A stretch of 11,964 nucleotides of DNA from the IMG/VR virus record IMGVR_UViG_648276671_000013; one strand, written 5' to 3'. Below, piece by piece: positions 1 to 11,964 of this stretch; positions within the stretch are counted from its first letter, which is position 1; each line of letters opens with the position of its first letter. The DNA comes from a virus. Taxonomy: Duplodnaviria > Heunggongvirae > Uroviricota > Caudoviricetes. A program made the translations under genes and the position numbers. The notes beneath the pieces were generated by a model, which had not been told where the DNA came from, made no database searches, and saw only the letters and a program-made list of their open reading frames with translations.

Positions 1-1266
1 ATGAAGCTCAGCGCCAGACAGGTCGAGACCGCAAAACCAAAAGATAAAACCTACAAAATGGCCGATGGCGGCGGTTTGTACCTTGAGGTTTCGGCCAAAG
101 GATCAAAATATTGGCGTATGAAATACAGACGCCCCTCTGACAAAAAAGAGGATCGCCTCGCTTTTGGTGTTTGGCCTACTGTGACGCTTGCTCAGGCAAG
201 AGCAAAGCGCGATGAAGCCAAAAAGCTATTAGTGCAGGGCATTGATCCAAAAGCCGAACAGAAAGAGGCTCAGGCCGAGAACTCGGGGGCATATACTTTC
301 GAAACCATTGCTCGTGAATGGCATGCCAGCAACAAGCGCTGGAGTGAAGACCATCGATCTCGCGTTCTTCGATATCTTGAGCTTTATATCTTCCCTCATA
401 TTGGTTCGTCCGATATTCGTCTACTCAAAACCAGCCACCTGTTAGCCCCAATTAAAAAAGTTGACGCTAGTGGAAAACACGACGTCGCTCAGCGCCTGCA
501 ACAGCGTGTAACGGCCATTATGCGTTATGCTGTACAGAACGATTACATTGACTCGAATCCGGCCAGTGATATGGCTGGTGCGCTATCTACAACCAAAGTG
601 CGACATTACCCTGCGTTACCTTCCTGCCGGTTACCTGAGTTTCTTGCACGTCTCGCTGCATATCGTGGTCGTGTAATGACACGGATCGCAGTCGAGCTTT
701 CCTTACTGACTTTTGTGCGTTCCAGTGAGTTACGTTTCGCGCGTTGGAATGAGTTCGACTTCGATAAAGCCCTTTGGCGCGTACCTGCAAAGCGGGAGGA
801 AATTAAGGGGGTGCGTTACTCGTATCGTGGTATGAAGATGAAAGAGGAGCATATTGTTCCGCTTAGTCGTCAGGCGATGAATTTGTTAGGCCAGTTGAAG
901 CAGATTAGTGGTGATAAGAAACTGCTTTTCCCGGGCGATCATGACGCAACTAAGGTTATGAGTGAAAACACAGTAAACAGCGCATTACGGGCGATGGGAT
1001 ATGACACTAAAACCGAAGTTTGTGGGCATGGATTTAGAACGATGGCGCGTGGTGCACTGGGGGAGTCGGGGCTATGGAGCGATGATGCGATAGAGCGTCA
1101 GTTAAGCCATACAGAACGAAATAATGTACGCGCGGCTTATATCCATACTTCTGAGCATTTGGACGAACGTCGATTGATGGTACAGTGGTGGGCTGATTAT
1201 TTGGAAGAGAATAAACTAAGAATGATAACACCATTTGATTACGGGAAAATATCTAATATAAAGTGA
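1..1266 (+). CDS. int: Tyrosine recombinase, P4-family integrase (421 aa)
   Basis: ORF starts at window position 1 with an N-terminus typical of P4-like integrases (...TAKPKDKTYKMADGGGLYLEVSAKGSKYWRMKYR...). C-terminal catalytic region has HGFRTMARGAL (His-x-x-Arg box) and VRAAYIH with a candidate catalytic Tyr. Sits next to the cargo hotspot as in P4. Confidence 0.9.
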   Translation: MKLSARQVETAKPKDKTYKMADGGGLYLEVSAKGSKYWRMKYRRPSDKKEDRLAFGVWPTVTLAQARAKRDEAKKLLVQGIDPKAEQKEAQAENSGAYTFETIAREWHASNKRWSEDHRSRVLRYLELYIFPHIGSSDIRLLKTSHLLAPIKKVDASGKHDVAQRLQQRVTAIMRYAVQNDYIDSNPASDMAGALSTTKVRHYPALPSCRLPEFLARLAAYRGRVMTRIAVELSLLTFVRSSELRFARWNEFDFDKALWRVPAKREEIKGVRYSYRGMKMKEEHIVPLSRQAMNLLGQLKQISGDKKLLFPGDHDATKVMSENTVNSALRAMGYDTKTEVCGHGFRTMARGALGESGLWSDDAIERQLSHTERNNVRAAYIHTSEHLDERRLMVQWWADYLEENKLRMITPFDYGKISNIK

Positions 1267-1291
1267 GTTTATAAAAATCAACTTTTGAAGC

Positions 1292-1309
1292 GGGGGGATT
1301 CCCCCCCCC
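1292..1309. terminator. G6-ATT-C9 hairpin between convergent int and cargo genes; probable bidirectional terminator
   Basis: GGGGGGA/TCCCCCC inverted repeat flanked on both sides by ACTTTT and ATAAAAAT direct repeats. Lies between the int stop (1266) and the cargo gene stop (1325). Confidence 0.35.
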
Positions 1310-1324
1310 AAACTTTTATAAAAA

Positions 1325-2217
1325 TTAAACATCTTCTCGACGTTTAGAGTTTGCGCGATATAGCGTTCTGGTTATATGGGATGTGAAATAGTCCTCATCT
1401 AAAAAATGCAATAATCTTTTTACATCTTTTCTTATTTGCGGCATTTTTATTTTTTCTAATTCACCGATTTTTTCAGTTTCTAGAACAACACCAATTTCAG
1501 CCGCTGATATTCTTAACTCAGTCACAGAGTAGTCCTCAAGTATTCTTGATTTATTAATCAAGGAAACTTTCTTTCTAATAACAGAGTCAGCAATTGTTGT
1601 TAAATCAAAACCCGGAGCTACTGAAAATTTTTCATGAGAAGAAAAACTTGTTAATTCTTCATTAGTGGCTTCTCTGAAATAAGCATCTACATCAAATATC
1701 CTGCGGAGCATATGGAAGCTTTTAAACTTTAATTCTGTACCTGCAAGAATAGCTGTTAGCTTATTGTCGATGACTATACCATGCTCAGTAGACTGGCAAA
1801 AGGTATTGCTTGCCTGAAATGGTTTTTGGAAAATTGTTCTTCTGTTATCAATAACTTGCCTTTTATCGAAGCTTTGGATTAAGGCAGTTGCAGGTTTTCC
1901 ATCCTCTTCAGGATAGCCTGAAAACAGAGCGATTATATTGAAGACTGATATTTCTTCCGGCTCCCATGGAGGGATAGTTGTGGGATTATTAATAGCATCT
2001 AATACAGCGATAACATCATCAAAGTCAGGAATGACAAAAAACTCATCTCCACTAGTGATGTAGCCACCTGAAAATTCTACGCCTTCTGTATAGCGTTCTT
2101 CAAAAAAGTTTTTTGTTCATTGAATAGCTGTGTGATTACATTTTGAGTCGGCCTGTCAGTAACAATTTTTACAATGCGTGTGCCAACTGTATTATCTGTT
2201 ATTGCAAACAATTCCAT
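1325..2217 (-). CDS. Cargo protein B, about 297 aa if one nucleotide is restored in the A6/T6 run at 2101-2116; as written it is frameshifted (N-terminal 46 codons from ATG 2217 end at TAG 2077-2079, the rest is in another frame)
   Basis: The frame of the 128-aa ORF (1325..1711) stays open for 135 more codons upstream (to 2116) with no ATG/GTG/TTG. An ATG at 2217, 8 nt after the upstream gene stop, opens a 46-codon ORF in a different frame. The two frames meet in CAAAAAAGTTTTTTG. AT-rich. Product identity unknown. Confidence 0.6.
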
Positions 2218-2225
2218 ATTTATTC

Positions 2226-2741
2226 CTATATTGCTATATATGTGTAATCAGTAAGCTTAATCAAATTAACACGATTGCCTGATGCTTTTAACAGTGGCTT
2301 TTTCGATAATATAACAAAGCTTACGCCTGTATCGTCTTCGGCTTCATAATATTTATATCCCCAAAATGATAATAATGGGTTGAAACTGTAGGAACCTGAA
2401 AAACTGATGTAAAAAAATAAACTCACAGCAAAGAAAGAAGCAATCCTAATATCCATAAATGCATCTGGACCACTGATTAAGGGAAATAAATAGGTTAAGA
2501 AATAATTTGTTATCTCCTTATCTGCTGGAGAAGCGGTAGTTAATTTTTTACTGGTTACAGAATTATATTTAATTGCGTATTTAACAATCAAAACACACAG
2601 TAAAAGTATAATTGCACACAATGATAAGTAAGCAATCATAAATTTATAGTGTTTTGATATACATGAAAGAAAAGCTAAGGTAAAAAATACCGGAGCAACT
2701 GAGCTGGCAGTAAGAAGATATTTGGCAAGCTTATTTAACAT
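2226..2741 (-). CDS. Small integral membrane protein, 171 aa, four predicted transmembrane helices (cargo protein A)
   Basis: Four hydrophobic stretches (LLTASSVAPVFFTLAFLSCI, MIAYLSLCAIILLLCVLIVKYAI, ITNYFLTYLFPLI, IRIASFFAVSLFFYISFSG). Strong SD AGGAGG 5 nt upstream of ATG. Stop is 8 nt from the start of the next gene, so operonic. Confidence 0.8.
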   Translation of the reverse strand: MLNKLAKYLLTASSVAPVFFTLAFLSCISKHYKFMIAYLSLCAIILLLCVLIVKYAIKYNSVTSKKLTTASPADKEITNYFLTYLFPLISGPDAFMDIRIASFFAVSLFFYISFSGSYSFNPLLSFWGYKYYEAEDDTGVSFVILSKKPLLKASGNRVNLIKLTDYTYIAI

Positions 2742-2914
2742 ATTATCCTCCTTATCTGCCCTAGTATCTGTATATAAAAACAGTATAACATCAATTTAAG
2801 CATCAAAGAAGATAATAAAAATCAATTAAATCATAATGATGCCTGCGTTTTTAAAGTGTGGGCTTTTGGAGGCGGGTAATGTACGCGCGTATTCCCTGGA
2901 GATTCCATTTAAAA

Positions 2915-2930
2915 GGCTACGTATGTAGCC
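2915..2930 (-). terminator. Intrinsic terminator candidate downstream of the 103-aa gene
   Basis: GGCTAC-gtat-GTAGCC hairpin; on the minus-strand RNA it is followed by UUUU. Lies 9 nt past the stop at 2939. Confidence 0.4.
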
Positions 2931-2938
2931 TCATGTAT

Positions 2939-3250
2939 TTAAGAGTACTGGCCCCAATCTCTGGCAATAAACCAGTTTGGCGTCCAGCTAACAAACTCTT
3001 GCGGATGAAAGTTTTGAGGGATTACAACTAGAGATACAATCGCTTCAGGTTGCAAACTGAGAACATGACTTTTTTTATCGCTTTCGTAATCCCAAAAATG
3101 GAATCTGTCACTTTTATCATGAGCTCTACGACTAGGACCGAAGTCCATAGGCGCAGTTAATCTTGTGATTGTCGCGTTATCTTCTTTTGAATAAAAAGTT
3201 AGCTGAATTTTTAAACAACTATGAATGGCATCAATGAATTTATCGCGCAT
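2939..3250 (-). CDS. Hypothetical protein, 103 aa, monocistronic cargo gene adjacent to cos
   Basis: ATG preceded by AAGGAG SD. Own terminator hairpin downstream, and about 197 bp of AT-rich spacer before the next gene. No recognisable motif by eye. Confidence 0.7.
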   Translation of the reverse strand: MRDKFIDAIHSCLKIQLTFYSKEDNATITRLTAPMDFGPSRRAHDKSDRFHFWDYESDKKSHVLSLQPEAIVSLVVIPQNFHPQEFVSWTPNWFIARDWGQYS

Positions 3251-3376
3251 ACGTTCTCCTTTGTAGTTACTAAATTAATATCCTCTATTGATAGATTATT
3301 GTGTGTGATCATTGCGGCATTTAATAAAACGTAATGAGTTCATTGTATTTTATTTATGTTATCAGCCTTGCGCGCA

Positions 3377-3395
3377 GTGCTTTCCCCGCCTCGCC
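3377..3395. other. cos cohesive-end site of the P2/P4 family (19 nt)
   Basis: GTGCTTTCCCCGCCTCGCC on the plus strand is the exact reverse complement of GGCGAGGCGGGGAAAGCAC, recalled as the P2/186/P4 cohesive end. Embedded in a GC-rich imperfect palindrome next to psu. Confidence 0.6.
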
Positions 3396-3495
3396 CGCCC
3401 GCTTTGCGGGGCGGTTTTAATGCAGTTGCACTGACACGCTCAGGCCGTGCCGGGAATGGCGCGGTATACAGAAAATGAGGCAGGAAAACGCATGC

Positions 3496-3529
3496 AAAGC
3501 CATGCACCTTATCGATGCATGGCTTTTTT
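3496..3529. terminator. Hairpin with flanking A/T runs; probable bidirectional terminator ending the sid-delta-psu late operon
   Basis: AAAGCCATGCA-(9 nt loop)-TGCATGGCTTT followed by a T run on the plus strand; on the minus strand the stem is followed by GCGUUUU. Lies 30 nt downstream of the psu stop. Confidence 0.5.
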
Positions 3530-3559
3530 CAGTAAAAACAGGCGGATTTTCGGGGAATT

Positions 3560-4132
3560 TTACACAGACTGACGTGATGCCAGTTGCGCACTTTTACGCG
3601 AAAAAATCATGTTCTGCGCAGGAGTGAATTTTTCACGGCTGTCATCCACCGAAGCCGCGTCAGGCCTGAATCCGATGGTCGTTAAAATGTCGCTATCCTG
3701 TGCGGAATAATTAATTTTTTCCCCCTTCGCAAGCCAGGACAGAAGGGCTTCACGCAGGGCATCTGTGGCACGCTGTATGGCACAGTTTCGGGCAATGGCC
3801 GTCAGCTCACTGTAGCCCATCAGCTCCGGTGCCAGTGCCGCCGCCAGTGCTGTGCCGTGCTGCTGCATAAAATCATTCAGCCGGTCGCGGATGCTGATGT
3901 ACTGAACGGCTTCATGCGAACGAATATAACGACCGGCGGCCTGATTCACCTGCCATTTTCTGACTTCGATAATATTGCGTAATTCGTCCAGGCGACTGAC
4001 GTTTCTGCCTTCTCCTGACAGAAGCCGCAGGTATTCCTGTTCGGCCGCTGCCAGCTCATTTTTGCGTTGCAGCCATGCTGCTTTGTTATTCTGACAGGTG
4101 TCAAAGGCCTGCTGTAAGGCTGTGCTTTCCAT
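3560..4132 (-). CDS. psu: Polarity suppression protein Psu (190 aa)
   Basis: Length and sequence (MESTALQQAFDTCQNNKAAWLQRKNELAAAEQEYLRLL...) match recalled P4 Psu. Last gene of the late operon. Confidence 0.92.
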   Translation of the reverse strand: MESTALQQAFDTCQNNKAAWLQRKNELAAAEQEYLRLLSGEGRNVSRLDELRNIIEVRKWQVNQAAGRYIRSHEAVQYISIRDRLNDFMQQHGTALAAALAPELMGYSELTAIARNCAIQRATDALREALLSWLAKGEKINYSAQDSDILTTIGFRPDAASVDDSREKFTPAQNMIFSRKSAQLASRQSV

Positions 4133-4205
4133 CGTTATCTCTTTCTCATCATGCTGAAGAATAAAAATACGGTGTGCGGCGACGGCCGGTGTTAACCGGC
4201 AGCCC

Positions 4206-4706
4206 TCATTCCAGACGCAGCGAATATGATTGTGTTTTTAAGCGTACTGGCGGCAGTTCCTGTTTTTCATGCAGGCTTTCTGCCAGTTCGTCCGGCGTGA
4301 CCGGGCGGACAATGAAACGGTTGATGGTCTGAAGCGTTTTAAACACCAGACCACAGCCCGGATCCGTGCACACATAAAAACGCTCGGTGACTTCCTGAGA
4401 CAGACGCCTCGATGTTCTTGACAGTGCAAGGCCTTTACATCTCCGACAACAATATCCGGTAACAAGCATTCTTTTCGGGCGTTTCATACTGCCGGAGGCT
4501 GACGTCAGTGAATCGCGGTATCTCTGTTTGCCTGAAATGTATTCCATTCCTGAATCTTTACTGTCAGAGAAAAAGCTTTCACTCGCTTCAAATGTCGCAG
4601 AGCAATAAATATTCCGGCACTGTGCAATCATTATCTTGGTGCCATCGTCCATGAAATGTGCGCGGCGGGTGTGAGCAACATGTCCACACGACGGGCAGTA
4701 AATCAT
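4206..4706 (-). CDS. delta: Delta, Ogr-like zinc-finger late-gene transactivator (166 aa, two Ogr-like halves)
   Basis: CPSCGHVAHTRRAHFMDDGTKIMIAQCRNIYCSATFEASESF is an Ogr-type zinc finger, and a second C-x2-C ... C-x4-C half follows. Length matches P4 Delta. The ATG overlaps the sid stop as ATGA. Confidence 0.92.
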   Translation of the reverse strand: MIYCPSCGHVAHTRRAHFMDDGTKIMIAQCRNIYCSATFEASESFFSDSKDSGMEYISGKQRYRDSLTSASGSMKRPKRMLVTGYCCRRCKGLALSRTSRRLSQEVTERFYVCTDPGCGLVFKTLQTINRFIVRPVTPDELAESLHEKQELPPVRLKTQSYSLRLE

Positions 4707-5437
4707 GACAGCAGTCCTCTGGCCTTAAGCTCTGCACCCTGCTGGTCTATTTTGTCCTGCCACACCTTGCGCTGTGCCGGTGTGCCTGCCACCTCATAAT
4801 CCATGTGCGGGAGTGTTGCCGCTGACAGTCCGGTCAGCCGGAGAACCGGCTCGCCGGTGAGGCTGATTTGCATCTGTTTAATTTTCTGTTCCAGCGATGA
4901 TTTCACCTGCTGCATGACAGCTTTATCGGGTGCGACGTAGCCCTGATGGCCGGTGGTGTTGGCGAGCGGATTTTCCTGTACCAGGATACTCAGATGCATT
5001 GCCCGGACAAGCGCCTCACAGGTTTCATTCAGGGCGTGTTCCAGCTCATGCTCTGCATACAGACTCAGAAGGTGATGATGTGCCTTCCGGTAGGCGGTGG
5101 CCGTGCTGTCACACGCCCCTTTCAGGCGTTCACGTTCGAAATTCAGCACCACGGCCAGATTGTCATATTCCTGTACCAGCTCCCGGCGTGCCACGCGCTC
5201 AATATGGCGCTGTTTCAGCTCATCGCTCAGGACACCACCGGCTGCACGAAAGGCCGTGCGCCAGTCGTCAGCGTCGTTTCCGTCGGCCTGCACCAGCGCA
5301 TTTTTTTCCTGCTCTGCCCGTTCAATGGCCGCGACGGTCTCATCCATCAGGCGGGCGTTCTCAAGATGGGCGGCTCTGGCCTTTTCCAGTTGTGCCAGTG
5401 CGGGTTGCAGATATTCAGGGATAGTGTGGTCAGACAT
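4703..5437 (-). CDS. sid: Capsid size determination protein Sid (244 aa from the second ATG)
   Basis: The ORF track starts at 5455, but a GAGGAG SD lies between the two ATGs and the 5437 start gives the 244 aa recalled for P4 Sid (MSDHTIPEYLQPALAQLEK...). Confidence 0.9.
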   Translation of the reverse strand: MSDHTIPEYLQPALAQLEKARAAHLENARLMDETVAAIERAEQEKNALVQADGNDADDWRTAFRAAGGVLSDELKQRHIERVARRELVQEYDNLAVVLNFERERLKGACDSTATAYRKAHHHLLSLYAEHELEHALNETCEALVRAMHLSILVQENPLANTTGHQGYVAPDKAVMQQVKSSLEQKIKQMQISLTGEPVLRLTGLSAATLPHMDYEVAGTPAQRKVWQDKIDQQGAELKARGLLS

Positions 5438-5509
5438 TTTCCGGCTCCTCGTCACTTCAGGTTAAGAAAATTGTGACGTACACCGGACAACAACACGACG
5501 CATTGCAGA

Positions 5510-5527
5510 TGTGCCAGCCCTGACACA
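5510..5527 (-). promoter_or_regulatory. Psid late promoter activator site (TGT-N12-ACA dyad for Delta/Ogr-type activators)
   Basis: TGTGCCAGCCCTGACACA is an exact TGT-N12-ACA, centred about 81 nt upstream of the sid ATG, which fits the usual -55 position in P2/P4 late promoters. Confidence 0.5.
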
Positions 5528-5605
5528 GGAGACTCATCCTCAGACCGGCAAGCCAGGAAAAGGTCGCAGGAAAAACCGGCTTACTGTTTGTTTTTTTATA
5601 TTTTA

Positions 5606-5710
5606 CTGTTCACCTCTGTTCACCATAAGAAAAAAGATAAGTAATACAGTAAGTTAAAGGGTGAACAATCGCAGTAATGACTGTTCACCGTCTGTTCACC
5701 ACTGTTCACC
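5606..5710. repeat. ori-like iteron cluster: six copies of the octamer TGTTCACC (five direct, one inverted)
   Basis: CTGTTCACC at 5606-5614, 5616-5624, 5681-5689, 5692-5700, 5702-5710 and inverted GGTGAACA at 5660-5667. This is the type I iteron recalled as the alpha-protein binding site in P4 ori/crr. Confidence 0.6.
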
Positions 5711-5988
5711 CGTTAATGGGCTTTTTGTGCTGTTCATTACTTTTTATTTTTATTAATTCACTGAAATAAATAAGAAAAAACAATTTGTATTTCACTATAA
5801 TTTTTTCCAGCTCCTTCCAGAGCGTTTTAAAGCTATCTGGCGCTGATGTACAAAAAATACACAGCCATTGTAAGACTGCCGGAACAAATCCCCCCTGTTG
5901 CGTCTGCCGAAAATATTCACAAAATAAAGCGCTACCCGAAGCCGGACGGACTTATCCGGTGCTGTATGGACATTAACGAGGTAGCCCG

Positions 5989-6255
5989 ATGCAAGCTGTT
6001 TTTTCTTCCCCGTCTCCCGCCCCTGTGACGCCACTGATGCCGCTGCCGGACATCACGCAGGAGCGTTTTTTACGTCTGCCGGAAGTGATGCACCTGTGCG
6101 GCCTGTCACGCTCGACCATCTACGAATTCATCCGTAAGGGGGAATTTCCGCCGCAGGTGAGTCTTGGCGGTAAAAATGTGGCCTGGCTGCACTCTGAAGT
6201 CACCGCATGGATGGCCGGGCGCATTGCCGGACGCAAACGGGGGTACGACGCATGA
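5989..6255 (+). CDS. vis: AlpA/Vis-family excisionase-regulator (88 aa)
   Basis: Core [48 protein letters not shown] is an AlpA-type HTH. 88 aa matches P4 orf88 (Vis). GAGG lies 8 nt upstream. An alternative internal start at 6037 cannot be excluded. Confidence 0.7.
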
Positions 6256-6290
6256 TGATGCCTGTTCTGCAAAAAGTCCCTTTTTCTGGC

Positions 6291-6320
6291 TTGCCTTTTT
6301 CCGGCATTTGCGGATATAGT
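6291..6320 (+). promoter_or_regulatory. Candidate sigma70 promoter (PLE-like) for the left operon
   Basis: TTGCCT - 18 nt - TATAGT, downstream of vis and upstream of the structured leader and small genes. Confidence 0.3.
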
Positions 6321-6644
6321 TTTTCCGCTGTCGCAAAATCGGCAGCCGGGCGTAGGAACCCGTGTAACTCGAAGGCGACATATGACGCGCCATGCGTCTT
6401 TTTTTGTGTCGCAATCAACGCCACAGAGCGCCAGATTATGGTGTGGCGTGTGGTTTGCCGTGCAGGTATGATCCTGTTCGCAATCGCATGTTATGCCACT
6501 GAGTCAATGGTAGCTCAGGCGGGGCAGCCTCCGGGCTGGCCGGTATTCTTCGAGGCCGGTATTCCTACCCCCGTCTGGGCTATCGCCATCGAGCGTAGGA
6601 ACTCCGGCGATAGCAGTTATTTGCTACTCGAAGGAGACGGCCTT

Positions 6645-6842
6645 ATGGCTACAACCCTTACCCCCTCACACCCTGAATTTGTCTTTGTGTTTGCGGCTGT
6701 CCGTCGCGCAGACCGTCATCCCCGTATCTGTATGCTTCGCACCGTCGCCGGTGATGAACGCAGTGCCCGCCGTTCCCTTGTCCGTGACTATGTGCTCTCC
6801 CTTGCTGCCCGTCTGCCGGTGGTGGAGGTGTCCCGTGCGTAA
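6645..6842 (+). CDS. Small hypothetical protein (65 aa) in the left operon
   Basis: AAGGAGA SD 7 nt upstream of ATG. Stop TAA overlaps the GTG start of the next gene (GTGCGTAA). The 211-aa ORF in the track is an upstream extension of this frame across the leader. Confidence 0.45.
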
Positions 6843-7122
6843 TAAAAAAGCCCCTCAGACCGTCTCAGCGCGTCATGACGCCCGTGAACACCTCAGCATT
6901 GAGGCTTACCATAAGCTCAACCGCGCCAGCGCCGTATCCCAGTTTGTTGGGGGTGATTTGATTCACCGTGAGCTCTCCGGCCTGCATCAGCTCTACATTC
7001 CGCATATTTTCAGCTACCTGAATGAGGATATTGATTTTGTGCTGAATGAGCTGAAAGCCAAAGGCCTGTGCCGCGATTTTCTCGCCCAGCAGAAAGACCG
7101 GGGAGACAGGACGCATGTTTGA
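6835..7122 (+). CDS. Epsilon-like (derepression) protein candidate, 95 aa, GTG start
   Basis: GGAGG SD 6 nt upstream of GTG. Sits immediately upstream of orf151 as epsilon does in P4. Its stop overlaps the orf151 start (ATGTTTGA). Sequence identity to P4 epsilon not verified. Confidence 0.45.
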
Positions 7123-7570
7123 TTTTCCCCAGCCCGGTGAGATTTACCGTTCTGCCGGTTTTCCCGATGTGGCCGTTGTCGGCATTCTGGAAGACGGTAT
7201 TCCGTGGGAAATGCCGTACCGCTGCCCGGACATTGTCTGGAACCCGTACCGCCGTAAATTCAGTATCCTTGTGCGTATCCTCGCTGACGGGCGCACCACA
7301 GACATCCCGCTGGGGCGTTTTCTGCGGGAATTTACCTGTGACCGTCCTGACCTGTTTAAACGCAGCCCCGTAAACCGGCATGCGGTACTGAAAGAAATGG
7401 CCGGAGACCCGGAATTACAGAAATGGCGGGAGAAATATCTGGATATTTACCCGCAGGACACTGTTCCGGCCAGCCGGGCGGCACCGGTGGCGCGGGAATG
7501 GCGGGAAATTCCCCGCACGGAGCCTGACCCGGAAACCACCCCGGATAACAGTTACCGCAATTATCTGTAA
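7115..7570 (+). CDS. Conserved P4 left-operon protein orf151 (151 aa)
   Basis: Length and position upstream of alpha match P4 orf151. GGAGA SD upstream. Translationally coupled to the preceding gene. Confidence 0.8.
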   Translation: MFDFPQPGEIYRSAGFPDVAVVGILEDGIPWEMPYRCPDIVWNPYRRKFSILVRILADGRTTDIPLGRFLREFTCDRPDLFKRSPVNRHAVLKEMAGDPELQKWREKYLDIYPQDTVPASRAAPVAREWREIPRTEPDPETTPDNSYRNYL

Positions 7571-7705
7571 TTAAAAAACGACACCCGAAAAATTAAATGT
7601 GCGTATTCGCGCAGGGATACGCACGTCTTCAGGAGACGCAGATATGCCTTATCAGTTAATGCAACCGGCACGGAATGCAGTCATCTGTCACAGGGAGGAA
7701 AGCAA

Positions 7706-8026
7706 ATGAAAACACCCTTACCGCCCGTCTTACGCGCAGCCCTTTACCGTCGTGCTGTCGCCTGTGCCTGGCTGACCGTGTGCGAACGTCAGCACCGCTA
7801 CCCGCATCTCACCCTTGAATCACTGGAGGCGGCCATCGCCGCTGAGCTGGAAGGCTTTTATCTGCGCCAGCACGGTGAGGAAAAAGGGCGTCAGATAGCC
7901 TGTGCCCTGCTGGAAGATTTAATGGAATCCGGCCCCCTGAAGGCCGCGCCGTCGCTGTCCTTTCTCGGGCTGGTTGTGATGGATGAACTCTGTGCCCGTC
8001 ACATAAAAGCGCCGGTACTGCACTGA
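7706..8026 (+). CDS. Conserved hypothetical protein (106 aa) immediately upstream of alpha
   Basis: GGGAGG SD upstream. AAGGAG for alpha lies just after its stop. No motif recognised. Confidence 0.7.
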
Positions 8027-8040
8027 AGGAGAACAACACC

Positions 8041-10374
8041 ATGAAAATGAACGTAACCGCCACCGTCAGCCATGCGCTCGGCCACTGGCCGCGTATTCTC
8101 CCGGCGCTGGGGATTCAGGTGCTGAAAAACCGTCATCAGCCCTGTCCGGTCTGTGGCGGGAGTGACCGCTTCCGTTTTGATGACAGGGAGGGGCGCGGCA
8201 CCTGGTACTGCAATCAGTGTGGTGCCGGTGACGGCCTGAAACTGGTTGAAAAGGTGTTTGGTGTCTCCCCGTCCGACGCGGCCGCAAAGGTGGCTGCCGT
8301 GACCGGCAGCCTGCCCCCGGCTGACCCGGCAGTGACGGCTGCCGCCGGTGCTGAAACAGACGCTGCCCGGAAGAACGCCGCCGCACTGGCACAAACCCTG
8401 ATGGCGAAAACCCGTACCGGAACCGGTAACGCCTACCTGACCCGCAAGGGCTTTCCCGGCCGGGAATGCCGGATGCTGACCGGCACACACAGAGCCGGTG
8501 GCGTGAGCTGGCGCGCCGGTGACCTTGTGGTGCCACTGTATGACGACAGCGGCGAACTGGTTAACCTTCAGTTAATCAGCGCTGACGGCCGTAAGCGCAC
8601 CCTGAAAGGCGGGCAGGTCAGGGGCACCTGTCACATCCTTGAAGGACAGAATCAGGCCGGAAAACGTCTGTGGATAGCGGAGGGATACGCGACCGCACTT
8701 ACCGTACATCACCTGACCGGTGAAACGGTGATGGTGGCGCTTTCTTCCGTGAACCTCCTTTCTCTGGCCAGCCTTGCCCGGCAGAAGCATCCGGCCTGTC
8801 AGATTGTCCTTGCCGCAGACCGTGACCTCAGCGGTGACGGCCAGAAAAAAGCCGCCGCAGCCGCAGATGCGTGTGAAGGTGTTGTTGCCCTGCCGCCGGT
8901 CTTCGGTGACTGGAATGATGCCTTCACGCAGTACGGCGGGGAAGCCACCCGTAAGGCCATTTACGATGCCATCCGGCCACCGGCTGAAAGCCCGTTCGAC
9001 ACCATGAGCGAAGCGGAGTTTTCCGCCATGAGTACCAGCGAAAAGGCCATGCGTATCTATGAGCATTACGGCGAGGCGCTCGCGGTCGATGCCAACGGCC
9101 AGCTTCTGTCCCGTTATGAAAATGGTGTCTGGAAGGTGCTGCCACCACAGGACTTTGCCCGGGATGTGGCCGGGCTGTTTCAGCGGCTGCGTGCGCCGTT
9201 CTCCTCCGGGAAGGTGGCCTCCGTGGTGGACACCCTGAAGCTGATTATTCCGCAGCAGGAAGCCCCCTCCCGCCGCCTGATTGGCTTTCGTAACGGCGTG
9301 CTCGACACGCAGAACGGCACGTTCCACCCGCACAGTCCGTCACACTGGATGCGCACCCTGTGCGATGTGGATTTCACCCCGCCGGTGGACGGTGAAACGC
9401 TGGAAACCCACGCTCCCGCGTTCTGGCGCTGGCTTGACCGTGCCGCCGGTGGCCGTGCGGAAAAACGCGACGTGATTCTGGCCGCACTGTTTATGGTGCT
9501 GGCAAACCGCTACGACTGGCAGCTCTTTCTGGAGGTGACCGGTCCCGGCGGCAGCGGCAAAAGTATCATGGCCGAAATAGCCACCCTGCTGGCCGGGGAG
9601 GATAACGCCACGTCGGCCACCATTGAGACGCTGGAATCCCCGCGTGAACGTGCCGCGTTAACTGGCTTCTCACTGATACGCCTGCCGGACCAGGAAAAAT
9701 GGAGCGGCGACGGTGCCGGACTCAAGGCCATCACCGGCGGCGATGCGGTGTCCGTTGACCCGAAATACCGGGATGCATACTCCACGCATATCCCGGCGGT
9801 GATTCTGGCCGTGAACAATAACCCGATGCGCTTCACCGACCGCAGCGGCGGCGTGTCACGCCGGCGGGTGATTATTCACTTCCCGGAACAGATAGCCCCG
9901 CAGGAGCGCGACCCGCAGCTTAAGGACAAAATCACCCACGAGCTGGCGGTCATCGTGCGTCACCTGATGCAGAAGTTCAGCGACCCGATGCTCGCCCGGT
10001 CACTGCTTCAGTCCCAGCAGAACTCAGACGAGGCGCTGAACATCAAACGGGATGCCGACCCGACGTTTGATTTTATCGGCTATCTGGAAACCCTGCCGCA
10101 GACCAGCGGCATGTATATGGGGAACGCCAGTATCATCCCGCGCAATTACCGTAAATACCTCTATCACGCCTATCTGGCCTACATGGAGGCAAACGGCTAC
10201 CGGAATGTACTCAGTCTGAAAATGTTCGGGCTGGGGCTGCCGGTGATGCTGAAGGAATACGGACTGAATTACGAGAAGCGCCATACCAAACAGGGGATAC
10301 AGACCAACCTGACGCTGAAAGAGGAAAGCTACGGCGACTGGCTGCCAAAATGTGAAGACCCTGCAACAACCTGA
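8041..10374 (+). CDS. alpha: Alpha protein: bifunctional DNA primase-helicase (777 aa)
   Basis: N-terminal primase zinc finger (CPVCGGSDRFRFDDREGRGTWYCNQCG), central TOPRIM-like region, C-terminal Walker A (GPGGSGKS) of a D5/SF3-type helicase. Length equals P4 Alpha. Confidence 0.95.
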   Translation: MKMNVTATVSHALGHWPRILPALGIQVLKNRHQPCPVCGGSDRFRFDDREGRGTWYCNQCGAGDGLKLVEKVFGVSPSDAAAKVAAVTGSLPPADPAVTAAAGAETDAARKNAAALAQTLMAKTRTGTGNAYLTRKGFPGRECRMLTGTHRAGGVSWRAGDLVVPLYDDSGELVNLQLISADGRKRTLKGGQVRGTCHILEGQNQAGKRLWIAEGYATALTVHHLTGETVMVALSSVNLLSLASLARQKHPACQIVLAADRDLSGDGQKKAAAAADACEGVVALPPVFGDWNDAFTQYGGEATRKAIYDAIRPPAESPFDTMSEAEFSAMSTSEKAMRIYEHYGEALAVDANGQLLSRYENGVWKVLPPQDFARDVAGLFQRLRAPFSSGKVASVVDTLKLIIPQQEAPSRRLIGFRNGVLDTQNGTFHPHSPSHWMRTLCDVDFTPPVDGETLETHAPAFWRWLDRAAGGRAEKRDVILAALFMVLANRYDWQLFLEVTGPGGSGKSIMAEIATLLAGEDNATSATIETLESPRERAALTGFSLIRLPDQEKWSGDGAGLKAITGGDAVSVDPKYRDAYSTHIPAVILAVNNNPMRFTDRSGGVSRRRVIIHFPEQIAPQERDPQLKDKITHELAVIVRHLMQKFSDPMLARSLLQSQQNSDEALNIKRDADPTFDFIGYLETLPQTSGMYMGNASIIPRNYRKYLYHAYLAYMEANGYRNVLSLKMFGLGLPVMLKEYGLNYEKRHTKQGIQTNLTLKEESYGDWLPKCEDPATT

Positions 10375-10390
10375 CCCTCATGACTCATCT

Positions 10391-10415
10391 GACCGGCATC
10401 TGCCGGTCTTTTTTT
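10391..10415 (+). terminator. Rho-independent terminator after alpha
   Basis: GACCGGCA-tc-TGCCGGTC stem followed by T7, 17 nt after the alpha stop. Confidence 0.7.
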
Positions 10416-10430
10416 ATCCCTGAATTCCCC

Positions 10431-10710
10431 GAAGGTGAACAATCCACTGTTCACCCTTCACCGTATATTCACCTGTTATCACACTGAAATTAAAAGAGAA
10501 AAACGAAAGGTGAACAGTGTGAACAATCAAATCAAAAAAAACTTTTTTTCTCCCTGTGTGATTTTCAGTACGGGGGATTAATCACCGGTATGAGTCACAC
10601 CGGCAGAATGCCGGAGGTGAAGAATCGAATGTTCACCCTTCACCCATTATTCACCACCTATCATACTGAAATAAAAGGAGAAAAAAGAAAGGTGAACAGT
10701 GTGAACAGTT
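10431..10710. repeat. crr-like region: two roughly 100-bp direct repeats each carrying TGTTCACC/GGTGAACA iterons
   Basis: Repeat 1 (about 10431-10530) and repeat 2 (about 10612-10710) share GGTGAA...TGTTCACCCTTCACC...ATTCACC...ACTGAAAT(T/A)AAAAG(A/G)AGAAAAA(C/A)GAAAGGTGAACAGTGTGAACA. Matches the recalled P4 crr organisation. Confidence 0.55.
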
Positions 10711-10920
10711 CTTTCGAAAAAAAAATTTTTATGTGGATAAAAGATGCACTGGTTTGGATCCGGGCTACGGATCCAAACTTACTGATTAAAAATTATTTAA
10801 CTTTCCGATTTATTGATGGGCTGAAAATAGATTGGTCAGAAAAACAGTGGGGGCACAAAAGGGGGCATATTTCATTGTTGTGTTTTATTATTTGTTTTTT
10901 ATCATTAACTTATTTTAATG

Positions 10921-10942
10921 TTTGAGTCCGGCCTTCGCACCA
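10921..10942 (+). other. att core remnant: degenerate copy of a tRNA-Leu (leuX-type) 3' end
   Basis: TTTGAGTCCGGCCTTCGCACCA resembles the recalled tRNA-Leu 3' end TTCGAGTCCGGCCTTCGGCACCA with one substitution and one missing G. No tRNA body upstream (AT-rich), so this is a core repeat, not a tRNA gene. Confidence 0.5.
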
Positions 10943-10955
10943 AAAGTATGTAAAT

Positions 10956-10979
10956 AGACCTCAACTGAGGTCTTTTTTT
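10956..10979 (+). terminator. Rho-independent terminator just downstream of the att core
   Basis: AGACCTC-aact-GAGGTCT followed by T7; positioned like a tRNA gene terminator. Confidence 0.55.
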
Positions 10980-11142
10980 ATGCCTGAAATCCGCACCACG
11001 CAAGGCTTTTCCAGCTTTTCTCCTCAACTGAAGTCAACCTGACTCAACCCACATCAACAGGCTTGTGAGTATACTAATAAGCATATTTGCCGATTCGATA
11101 TTGCTTGTATACTCACGAGATACCAATGGAAGGAAGACCATT

Positions 11143-11964
11143 ATTGCCCTAACGGATACTAAAGTTCGTTCTGTGAAGTCAGAGGAGAAAGAGTATTCAC
11201 TTGTTGACGGCGACGGCATGTCTTTACTTGTAAAACCTGGCGGTTCAAAGTATTGGTGATTTCGTTTCCGTTCTGGTGGTAAACAACATTTGATGGCGTT
11301 CGGCGTTTACCCGGATGTTTCGCTGGCGGATGCGCGGAAGAAAAGGGAAGAGGCCAGAAAGCTGGTAGCTGCTGGTATCGATCCTCGTGAGCATAAACGT
11401 GCTGTGAAAGAAGAGCAGGCGAAAGAGATTATTACTTTCGAGAAGGTTGCCAAATAGTGGCTCGTGACCAACCAAAAATGGTCGGAATATCATGCTAATC
11501 GTCTAAAAAGAGCCTGGAGGAGAATATCTTCCCGGCAATTGGTGCTCGTAATATTGCTGAACTGGGCACCCGCGATCTGTTAATTCCCATTAAAGCTGTG
11601 GAGAAATCCGGACGTCTTGAAGTGGCTCCTTCAACAGCGCACCACGGCCATCATGCGTTATGCAGTGCAAAGCGGGTTAATTGATTACAATCCGGCGCAA
11701 GAGATGGCGGGGGCGGTTGCTTCCAGTAATCGACAACATCGTCCGGCGCTGGAATTAAATCGCATCCCTGAGTTGCTTGAGAAAATAGACAGCTACACCG
11801 GCAGGCCGCTAACCCGCTGGGCAACGGAACTCACTCTACTTATCTTCATCCGCTCCAGTGAACTGCGTTTTGCTCGCTGGTCAGAAATCGATTTTGAAAC
11901 GTCAATGTGGACCATCCCTCTTGATGGGCATTGCAGTAAGCTGAGGGTTGGACTGGTATTGTAA
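11143..11964 (+). pseudogene. Second P4-family integrase, disrupted (start codon lost, two in-frame stops, at least two frameshifts); continues to the window edge
   Basis: Three reading frames together spell an integrase paralogous to int at 1-1266 (IALTDTKVRS...GGSKYW*FRFRSGGKQHLMAFGVYPDVSLADARKKREEARKLVAAGIDP...VAK*WLVTNQKW...TTAIMRYAVQSGLIDYNPAQEMAG...ELRFARWSEIDFETSMWTIP). Confidence 0.8.

Follow-up and report, generated by a model that had tools for sequence, protein, structure and literature searches.

We analysed a window of 11,964 nucleotides (IMG/VR virus record IMGVR_UViG_648276671_000013) and conclude, with a probability that we put at about 85%, that its interval between int and cos (1267-3376) carries cargo gained by horizontal transfer, placed in the defence hotspot (psu/cos-int) of a P4-like satellite that is integrated at tRNA-Leu, and that this cargo consists of a divergent Kiwa system together with a separable gene, orf103. 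The cargo is the already known combination of a WYL protein with Kiwa, real but ordinary, and in the window its kwaB gene is frameshifted. The features discussed below are listed in Table 1.

Table 1. Features of the int-psu region of the window
Feature	Coordinates	Strand	Evidence or remark
int, P4-type tyrosine integrase, left hotspot border	1-1266	+	PHROG integrase 4e-56
Stretch without phage P4 homology, variable hotspot segment replacing P4 gop/beta/cII	1206-3367		blastn vs NC_001609, GC 0.346
G/C hairpin (G8-AAT-C6, minus strand) between convergent int and kwaB	1292-1309		pattern scan, RNA fold z -2.3
Third gene of the earlier note, 128-aa ORF from internal Met170 of kwaB	1325-1711	-	
kwaB, Kiwa effector, DUF4868, frameshifted pseudogene here	1325-2217	-	893 nt vs 894 nt intact
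N-terminal KwaB remnant up to premature stop, 46 aa	2077-2217	-	ORF list, three-frame translation
Frameshift site, coding-strand T6 where intact alleles have T7	2102-2107	-	
kwaA, Kiwa membrane component, 171 aa, intact	2226-2741	-	PADLOC KwaA PDLC00216 1.6e-76, full length
orf103-kwaA intergenic region, 197 nt	2742-2938	-	contains orf103 hairpin and extended -10-like TGTTATACT
Hairpin 3' of orf103	2914-2931		8-bp stem, fold z -2.25
orf103, stand-alone WYL-domain protein, 103 aa, own transcription unit	2939-3250	-	WP_001205027
cos cohesive-end 19-mer GGCGAGGCGGGGAAAGCAC, right hotspot border	3377-3395	-	exact P2/P4 match
psu, conserved backbone gene past cos	3560-4132	-	PHROG Psu 4.5e-100

The cargo lies in the defence hotspot of a P4-like satellite

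An earlier note on this DNA had assigned it to the P4 family of satellites, and the backbone bears this out, as int, psu, delta, sid, alpA, the alpha primase, cos and the C4 and isrK RNAs are all present. Specifically, PHROG matches were obtained for delta (6e-68), sid (1.2e-115) and alpha (6e-241) in addition to those in Table 1, and Rfam identified the immunity RNAs C4 (74.4 bits at 6503-6590) and isrK (69.4 bits at 6327-6404). The int gene has 89% nucleotide identity to P4 int across 1-1205, the region 3396-10942 has 97.2% nucleotide identity to P4, and identity to P4 outside 1206-3367 is 96-97%. In related genomes tRNA-Leu is located 160 nt upstream of int, and an att core repeat is found at about 10923-10942. 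The features of a P4-like satellite, namely a tRNA-flanked integrase, sid-delta-psu together with alpha, cos and a CI-type immunity RNA, are therefore all found.

The interval between int and cos had also been described as AT-rich against a GC-richer backbone, which measurement confirms: the GC content of 1267-3376 is 34.6% (0.346) as compared with 0.530 across the remaining window, and the lowest-GC segment of 2110 bp starts at 1251. A similar picture is given by GC3, which is 0.26-0.33 for the cargo genes and 0.45-0.71 for int, psu and alpha. In a blastn comparison of the window with P4 (NC_001609), homology is present over 1-1205 and 3368-10942 and is missing from the stretch between them. 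The cargo sits precisely between int and the cos 19-mer. The linear P4 record begins with this same 19-mer, and its two ends abut at 3395/3396; P2-family cos regions match 3370-3442. The view of this interval as a variable anti-phage hotspot agrees with the psu-int interval being a published defence hotspot (Rousset et al., 2022; PMC9122126). A second AT-rich region, at 10400-11100, was considered as another cargo slot and was rejected, as it corresponds to P4's own crr repeats, att region and P4p05 ORF.

An identical three-gene cargo is on record

P4 itself carries gop, beta and cII in the same cos-int slot, which are also three genes and are validated as defence. However, P4 cII is located on the opposite strand and gop, beta and cII have no sequence similarity to the cargo (best cargo-protein BLASTP E about 0.3 (0.33)), in agreement with the claim of the earlier note that the gene content differs. 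Two outcomes had been named there beforehand as speaking against its reading, these being a uniform GC content and proteins that match gop/beta/cII or housekeeping genes. The GC content is not uniform, and the cargo genes are neither of these.

The further claim that the cargo is a distinct one did not hold up, since the identical three proteins constitute system #14, 'WYL/DUF4868', in Table S1B of Rousset et al., 2022 (Cell Host Microbe; PMC9122126), where it is recorded 93 times from P4 hotspots of E. coli. System #14 has the same proteins (WP_001205027, WP_000932801 and WP_000418440) in the same order, orientation and psu/cos-int slot, with the T6 frameshift in the kwaB of the window being the sole difference. 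The same three-gene cargo is also cluster 11, 'Kiwa', of the Domainator survey, and WP_000418440, which is the intact kwaB product in 29 of the 30 listed complete genomes, is named 'Kiwa anti-phage protein KwaB-like' in RefSeq in these 29. Thus, with the hotspot, Kiwa and the exact three-gene arrangement already published and annotated in RefSeq, the cargo has little discovery value, and its label should be corrected from "unknown" to "WYL + Kiwa (kwaB frameshifted)".

Two of the cargo genes are kwaA and kwaB of a divergent Kiwa subtype

Whereas the function of the cargo had been regarded as not evident from sequence, HMM searches identify two of its genes as kwaA and kwaB of Kiwa, and the third has a WYL fold. 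KwaA is matched over its full length by the PADLOC profile (Table 1), and the identical protein carries a precomputed Pfam assignment to PF28043 KwaA. Its hydrophobic segments are at residues 8-30, 31-62 and 94-116, and it is labelled '4TM' in Table S1B of Rousset et al., 2022 (PMC9122126). The reconstructed 297-aa KwaB matches PADLOC KwaB PDLC00222 over its full length (7.6e-117) and Pfam PF16162 at 28.2 bits, which is above the 26.3 cut-off. The structure of KwaB was assessed with the AF2 model of a 94%-identical cluster representative (P0103, pLDDT 80.5), for which the significant Foldseek matches are solely solved KwaB or KwaA-KwaB structures (E 6e-7 to 3e-6, full length). As expected for Kiwa, kwaA is upstream of kwaB, with 8 nt from the kwaA stop to the kwaB start, and the KwaB fold and DUF4868 are observed in the reconstructed sequence or in the 94%-identical relative; the two genes are not both intact, as kwaB is frameshifted.

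The characterised Kiwa systems of E. coli O55:H7 RM12579 and ECOR8/12/49 (Doron 2018; Zhang, Todeschini et al. 2025) are likewise two-gene operons in which a small multi-TM KwaA is followed by a KwaB of ~300 aa with a C-terminal DUF4868. There are, however, several differences. The cargo KwaB has only 11-14% identity and a global TM-score of 0.45 to solved KwaB (PDB 9mrx, 9nyu, 9mtn), and the cargo proteins differ in size from the characterised ones (171 vs about 195 aa for KwaA, 297 vs 315 aa for KwaB). No relative of KwaA or KwaB was returned by phmmer against PDB sequences. In addition, KwaA scores 32.9 bits against the NCBIfam KwaA equivalog, for which the cut-off is 100, and this indicates a divergent Kiwa subtype.

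Expression signals within the cargo

The earlier note had described three minus-strand genes with good Shine-Dalgarno sequences and their own terminators, and each part of this description stands only in part. On the minus strand the cargo does contain three ORFs that reach 100 aa or more (2939-3250, 2226-2741 and 1325-1711), but the third is the tail of kwaB and not a separate gene. The start of this ORF has no Shine-Dalgarno sequence (AAAAGCTTCCATATG), and it is the sole ATG/GTG/TTG-initiated ORF 3' of the frameshift. Good Shine-Dalgarno sequences are found for orf103 (AAGGAG) and kwaA (AAGGAGG), whereas that of kwaB (TAGGAA) is weak and overlaps the kwaA stop, 8 nt before the kwaB start, which suggests that translation of kwaB may be coupled to that of kwaA. 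Regarding the terminators, hairpins are present 3' of orf103 and of kwaB but lack a canonical coding-strand T-run, and kwaA, being in one operon with kwaB, has no separate terminator. The pattern scan called both hairpins on the plus strand only. The one at 1292-1309, whose C/G-run length differs between strains, is probably a bidirectional terminator for int and kwaB. Finally, the extended -10-like TGTTATACT upstream of kwaA is a putative kwaAB promoter. A consensus promoter scan did no better than shuffled sequence, with 7 sites vs 9.0 expected and the putative kwaAB promoter not among them, and promoter assignments were therefore made by eye.

A one-base deletion interrupts kwaB

The earlier note had overlooked a one-base deletion in kwaB. 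When positions 1200-3450 (2251 nt) are compared with strain NY1601, the T6/T7 difference is the only one observed. The reading frame breaks at codon 38, within the N-terminal domain, and reaches a stop after 46 codons; no start codon is available for residues 47-169, such that most of the N-terminal domain is lost. Because kwaB is stopped after 46 codons, the T7-to-T6 deletion most likely makes the Kiwa module non-functional in this copy, which is better left out of counts of functional defence systems. Defence by the Kiwa of ECOR8 is reported to need both genes (Zhang, Todeschini et al., bioRxiv 10.1101/2023.02.26.530102). Both kwaA and orf103 are still intact in the window.

We also weighed a programmed or functional split of kwaB but rejected it, as the break at codon 38 is not at a domain boundary and there is no restart codon. 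Naturally split KwaB proteins (70 of 9,797 loci; Zhang et al.) also comprise more than one ORF, but there the break is at the Rossmann-like/DUF4868 boundary and both halves are retained.

T-run lengths were counted in 14 loci, and the exact 46-aa product was also found on 12-15 other contigs. The T6 allele accounts for ~1% of copies (12 contigs vs at least 1000 with the intact protein) and is present in one of the 30 listed complete genomes. One explanation for a change of a single base in a 7-nt homopolymer, in DNA otherwise identical to NY1601 over 2251 nt, is an error of sequencing or assembly, in which case the organism would have an intact three-gene cassette. In its favour, one T6 contig (L012) has several further single-base gaps typical of homopolymer error. 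However, strain A10, whose genome is complete, carries T6 as well, as do two NCBI assemblies and a number of independent assemblies of short reads; these copies represent at least three SNP haplotypes and mostly show no other indels. We thus regard an artefact as the less probable account, although one that retains some weight, and a genuine deletion as the preferred one.

The WYL gene and Kiwa are separable modules

New to this analysis is the observation that the WYL gene and Kiwa are separable modules. Aeromonas, a Photorhabdus prophage and a lambdoid prophage each carry this KwaAB subtype with no WYL gene, and members of the orf103 family have other neighbours in P4-like elements of Yersinia, in Pantoea, in Photobacterium and in 80 further species. 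Neighbour counts were made for 86 orf103-family loci outside Enterobacteriaceae, and none of these has a Kiwa neighbour (0/86). Most often the partner in these loci is an Old-type ATPase-TOPRIM nuclease, which is directly adjacent and on the same strand in 15 of the 86 loci.

These results bear on the alternative that the three genes form a single obligate system, with the WYL protein as the dedicated sensor or regulator of Kiwa, a role that was suggested in Table S1B of Rousset et al. (PMC9122126). Congruent with it, the three proteins co-occur in E. coli P4 hotspots (93 loci, 35 complete genomes) in a single shared orientation, and WYL domains are known to regulate defence operons, as with BrxR and CapW, the two proteins that orf103 matches best in structure. 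Yet orf103 is a single WYL barrel of 103 aa that lacks an HTH or other DNA-binding domain, and 197 nt containing a hairpin part it from kwaA, where in one genome ISKox3 is inserted. Together with the three contexts in which Kiwa of this subtype is a bare two-gene system and with the nuclease rather than Kiwa neighbours outside Enterobacteriaceae, this makes an obligate system unlikely. A literature search for 'WYL' with 'Kiwa' gave nothing relevant, and the Kiwa mechanism paper (bioRxiv 10.1101/2023.02.26.530102) does not mention WYL or satellites.

orf103 belongs to a conserved family of stand-alone WYL proteins

orf103 gave no match at E<=0.01 in Pfam, PADLOC, PHROGs or NCBIfam, and it was resolved solely through structure prediction and fold search. 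The predicted architecture comprises a single helix, a barrel of five strands and a short tail rich in Trp, which corresponds to the WYL fold (an Sm-like five-stranded barrel). Pfam PF13280 does not match the orf103 of the window and matches 5 of 57 relatives weakly (best E 0.021), short of its curated threshold; the family profile retrieved nothing meaningful among PDB sequences, and no HTH was matched by Pfam. Rousset et al. (PMC9122126) report a match at the level of HHpred. Compared with the WYL-domain defence regulators BrxR, CapW and PafBC/DriD, orf103 lacks the N-terminal wHTH and the C-terminal WCX, and it is unusually conserved in sequence across phyla, with 16 invariant residues, among them R30, D36, R49, H51, D54, W89, W93 and R97. 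Full-length identity within the family is 44-87% (best 80 of 147 confirmed loci), and its members are found in Enterobacteria, Cyanobacteria, Saccharibacteria, Actinobacteria, Firmicutes and a few archaeal MAGs.

orf103 has no DNA-binding domain, and we infer that it is most likely a small ligand binder, of ssDNA or a nucleotide, that would modulate neighbouring defence genes and would not act as a classical repressor. A more specific proposal, which we make tentatively and rate as rather doubtful, is that orf103 is no accessory of Kiwa but a member of an uncharacterised and widely transferred family that serves as a portable ligand-sensing partner for nuclease-type defence. If true, orf103 in the P4 hotspot would be either an independent one-gene module or a modulator common to the adjacent cargo. 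Two small leads emerge, namely the separability of WYL and Kiwa and a strikingly conserved WYL family with Old-type nucleases as frequent partners, and each is relevant to the action of stand-alone WYL domains within defence islands.

A defence role is indicated by gene content and location

The cargo is anti-phage in kind, in agreement with its placement by the earlier note in a hotspot for anti-phage systems. If the mechanism of characterised Kiwa (Zhang, Todeschini et al., bioRxiv 10.1101/2023.02.26.530102) applies here, KwaA, a 4-TM protein of the inner membrane, would sense membrane disturbance from phage attachment or DNA injection and would then release or activate KwaB, the DUF4868 of which would bind incoming DNA and block phage replication and late transcription. 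Applying this mechanism to the cargo is an extrapolation because of the low identity and TM-score of KwaB, the lack of phmmer relatives in PDB and the below-cut-off KwaA equivalog score. System #14, for which this is the sole direct test of the exact three-gene cassette, was cloned from E. coli TA280 with its native promoters as pFR79, 'WYL-Kiwa', and is listed in Table S2B of Rousset et al. (PMC9122126) under 'additional tested systems', outside the validated ones, in a study that used an eight-phage panel. As pFR79 is not among the validated systems, it gave no defence against these eight phages, and the anti-phage activity of this Kiwa subtype is therefore unproven.

The pFR79 result, and the presence of nearby IS elements and frameshifts in cargo copies, would also fit a cargo with no defence role in E. 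coli, being either AT-rich passenger DNA or genes that serve the satellite, for instance when it interacts with the helper phage. This is improbable given the strong conservation of all three proteins (16 invariant residues in orf103, 48 invariant columns in KwaB), the intergenic location of the examined IS copies outside the ORFs, the activity of homologous Kiwa systems against phages and conjugation (Zhang, Todeschini et al., bioRxiv 10.1101/2023.02.26.530102) and the proven defence role of the slot. We thus retain the reading of the cargo as a defence cargo. Disruption of the cargo genes by IS elements was considered separately and was rejected, as the elements are intergenic in the three genomes inspected.

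The kwaB T tract as a possible recurrent off-switch

The closest relatives of T6 haplotypes carry T7 (the window vs L001, L014 vs L003). X XXY YYZ is the slippery pattern for ribosomal frameshifting, and the zero-frame site AC-T TTT TTG fits it. A functional switch, either by T7/T6 phase variation or by -1 ribosomal frameshifting on U UUU UUG, which on the T6 allele would restore full-length KwaB with one F-to-L change, is nevertheless very improbable, as T6 is rare, phase variation is unlikely to be efficient on a tract of just 7 nt and the majority T7 allele requires no frameshift. A lesser and rather doubtful proposal is that the T7 tract of kwaB may be a recurrent off-switch.

An AT-rich cargo between int and cos of a P4-like satellite

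The window, a P4-like satellite prophage, matches phage P4 (NC_001609) at 97.2% across 3396-10942 and at 89% across 1-1205, with no match to P4 anywhere in 1206-3367. The first 28 nt of the linear P4 record match positions 3368-3395, and an exact P2/P4 cohesive-end 19-mer is located at 3377-3395. GC content is 0.346 in 1267-3376 versus 0.530 elsewhere in the window, the lowest-GC 2110-bp segment of the entire sequence starts at 1251, and GC3 is 0.26-0.33 in the cargo genes versus 0.45-0.71 in backbone genes. The GC contrast, the P4 homology gap and the cos 19-mer thus indicate that the AT-rich int-cos cargo is real and correctly placed, as the earlier note had proposed. That note was also right in setting the cargo apart from P4 gop, beta and cII, to which the cargo proteins show no relation by BLASTP, and in naming both the hotspot and the kind of cargo: this is the psu-int hotspot defined by Rousset et al. 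2022 (PMC9122126), who name Kiwa among its known systems, and Kiwa genes are present.

Features of the window and insertion sequences at equivalent positions in compared loci
Feature	Position	Strand	Remark
int	1-1266	+	P4-type integrase
kwaB	1325-2217	-	frameshifted
kwaA	2226-2741	-	171 aa
orf103	2939-3250	-	103 aa
psu	3560-4132	-
delta	4206-4706	-
sid	4703-5455	-
alpA	5989-6255	+
isrK and C4 antisense RNA	6327-6404 and 6503-6590	+	Rfam matches
alpha primase	8041-10374	+
crr region, two 120-bp direct repeats	10429-10548 and 10611-10730
P4p05-like ORF	10590-10925
IS421	L024, equivalent to ~1270-1320		between int and kwaB
ISKox3	L026, equivalent to ~2750-2930		between orf103 and kwaA
IS1A	L025, equivalent to ~3260-3370		between orf103 and cos

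The cargo encodes a divergent Kiwa subtype and a WYL domain

The kwaA product matches the PADLOC KwaA model over its full length (1.6e-76), and a protein identical to it carries a precomputed Pfam match to PF28043 (KwaA); its score against the NCBIfam KwaA equivalog is far under the cut-off. The reconstructed 297-aa second protein matches PADLOC KwaB, also full length (7.6e-117), and the Pfam KwaB score (PF16162) exceeds the gathering threshold. Since kwaA ends 8 nt ahead of the kwaB start, the two genes form an operon. No PDB relative of either protein was found by phmmer. A PDB search with the AlphaFold model of P0103, a 94%-identical KwaB relative (pLDDT 80.5), yielded just four significant matches (E 6e-7 to 3e-6). 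Each is a solved KwaB or KwaA-KwaB structure (9mrx, 9nyu, 9mtn) that aligns along the full length with 11-14% identity; all remaining matches have E > 0.4. By sequence and predicted fold, kwaA-kwaB is a divergent Kiwa subtype.

Characterised Kiwa is a membrane supercomplex of KwaA tetramers and KwaB dimers in which KwaA senses phage-induced membrane stress and KwaB then binds ejected DNA via DUF4868, blocking replication and late transcription; the system depends on both genes, and KwaB is inhibited by phage Gam (bioRxiv 10.1101/2023.02.26.530102). Judging from architecture and fold, the present subtype would share this membrane-sensing and DNA-binding mechanism.

In regards to orf103, no match was obtained in Pfam, PADLOC, PHROGs or NCBIfam. 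Its family consists of tightly conserved proteins of ~103 aa with 16 invariant residues, and the predicted structure (pLDDT 94.7) consists of a single helix, a barrel of five strands and a tail rich in Trp. This barrel, together with weak Pfam WYL matches in 5 of 57 relatives (best E 0.021), indicates that orf103 is a stand-alone WYL domain. Known WYL regulators, in contrast, carry HTH and WCX domains, both of which orf103 lacks.

The kwaB allele of the window is frameshifted

Three-frame translation showed that the kwaB frame opens at 2217 (MELFAITDN...), changes frame near 2100 and runs on to 1325, and an intact 894-nt gene (WP_000418440) occupies the same place in related E. coli genomes. 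Strain NY1601 is identical to the window over 1200-3450 except for one base: its coding-strand T7 run is T6 in the window, at 2102-2107, placing a stop after 46 codons. There is no in-frame ATG, GTG or TTG downstream of the frameshift ahead of Met170, which is the start of a 128-aa ORF (1325-1711). The earlier note had counted this ORF among three minus-strand genes with good Shine-Dalgarno sequences; three ORFs of at least 100 aa do exist, but the third is no gene, only the 3' part of frameshifted kwaB, and lacks a Shine-Dalgarno sequence.

The 46-aa product occurs on 12-15 contigs versus at least 1000 for intact KwaB, and T6 makes up ~1% of copies. A sequencing error in the window's own source is possible. 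Nevertheless, the complete genome of strain A10 carries T6, independent assemblies do too, and at least three SNP haplotypes are represented (window 2102-2107; compared loci L009-L014 and L027), so that the allele, though rare, is probably both real and recurrent. Natural KwaB splits differ from it in that the break coincides with the domain boundary and both halves are retained (bioRxiv 10.1101/2023.02.26.530102). Because kwaB is truncated, the Kiwa copy in the window is most likely inactive.

The WYL and Kiwa cargo is already known

The function of the cargo had been judged not evident and its content distinct. HMM searches (PADLOC, Pfam) identify KwaA and KwaB, and the same three accessions constitute system #14, 'WYL/DUF4868', with 93 occurrences (Tables S1A/B, Rousset et al., PMC9122126). 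This system was cloned from E. coli TA280 as pFR79 'WYL-Kiwa', a row found among the 'additional tested systems' of Table S2B and absent from the validated Table S2A (PMC9122126). A Domainator survey places the three-gene cargo in cluster 11, 'Kiwa', and RefSeq names KwaB in 29 of 30 listed complete genomes. Given these records the finding is already known, and the cargo is neither novel nor of unknown function. The original observation is thus partly confirmed, and its interpretation partly supported.

Evidence for two modules

The evidence says that the three genes comprise two modules, orf103 and KwaAB. In Aeromonas, where it lies beside glyQS, the KwaAB subtype has no WYL gene with it, and the same holds near Q in a lambdoid prophage; in a Photorhabdus prophage it stands alone, flanked by lysis and terminase genes. 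In P4-like elements of Yersinia, the corresponding slot holds relatives of orf103 that adjoin a DUF2971 gene. Other relatives lie within a defence island of Pantoea, next to an integrase in Photobacterium and, on metagenomic contigs, upstream of an OLD-family nuclease. Scanning one genome per species gave 147 confirmed loci; identities among the best 80 are 44-87%, and these 80 come from many bacterial phyla and a few archaeal MAGs.

When neighbours were clustered from crude ORF calls at 86 loci, no Kiwa neighbour was found in this sample. The only recurrent neighbour was a ~615-aa protein on the same strand, directly downstream in 12 loci and upstream in 3, with Pfam AAA_15/AAA_21 and OLD-like TOPRIM matches and Old as its best PADLOC model (3.7e-76). 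An Old-type ATPase-TOPRIM nuclease hence adjoins the family in 15 of 86 loci, a pairing of which we found no description in literature searched on other questions.

Flanking regions

Between psu and cos (3396-3560) and on into orf103, the minus strand yielded no terminator-like site, so it is conceivable from the sequence that transcription of the P4 late operon (sid-delta-psu) may run on into the cargo. At the int/kwaB terminator hairpin (1297-1310) the G/C homopolymer varies among strains, with ~5-10 C on the plus strand. An IS element lies under the match in 4 of the 30 listed complete genomes with the cargo; in all three inspected it is intergenic and all three ORFs are intact.

The isrK/C4 stretch, which overlaps an annotated Icd-like ORF, represents the P4 CI-RNA immunity region. 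A second AT-rich stretch, after alpha, was rejected as a further cargo slot, being P4's own crr and att region plus the P4p05-like ORF. An attR core (10923-10942), which repeats the tRNA-Leu 3' end, marks the end of the satellite. Past this core, at 11065-11964, is another P4-type integrase with 41% identity to int; its three in-frame stops (TGA 11257, TAG 11455, TAA 11581) show it to be a pseudogene left over from a tandem island, and the annotation of strain RM8082 calls it a partial pseudogene. In RM8082 the island past this integrase encodes a full-length, regulator-sized 297-aa WYL domain-containing protein (L028, 14933-15826, outside the window).
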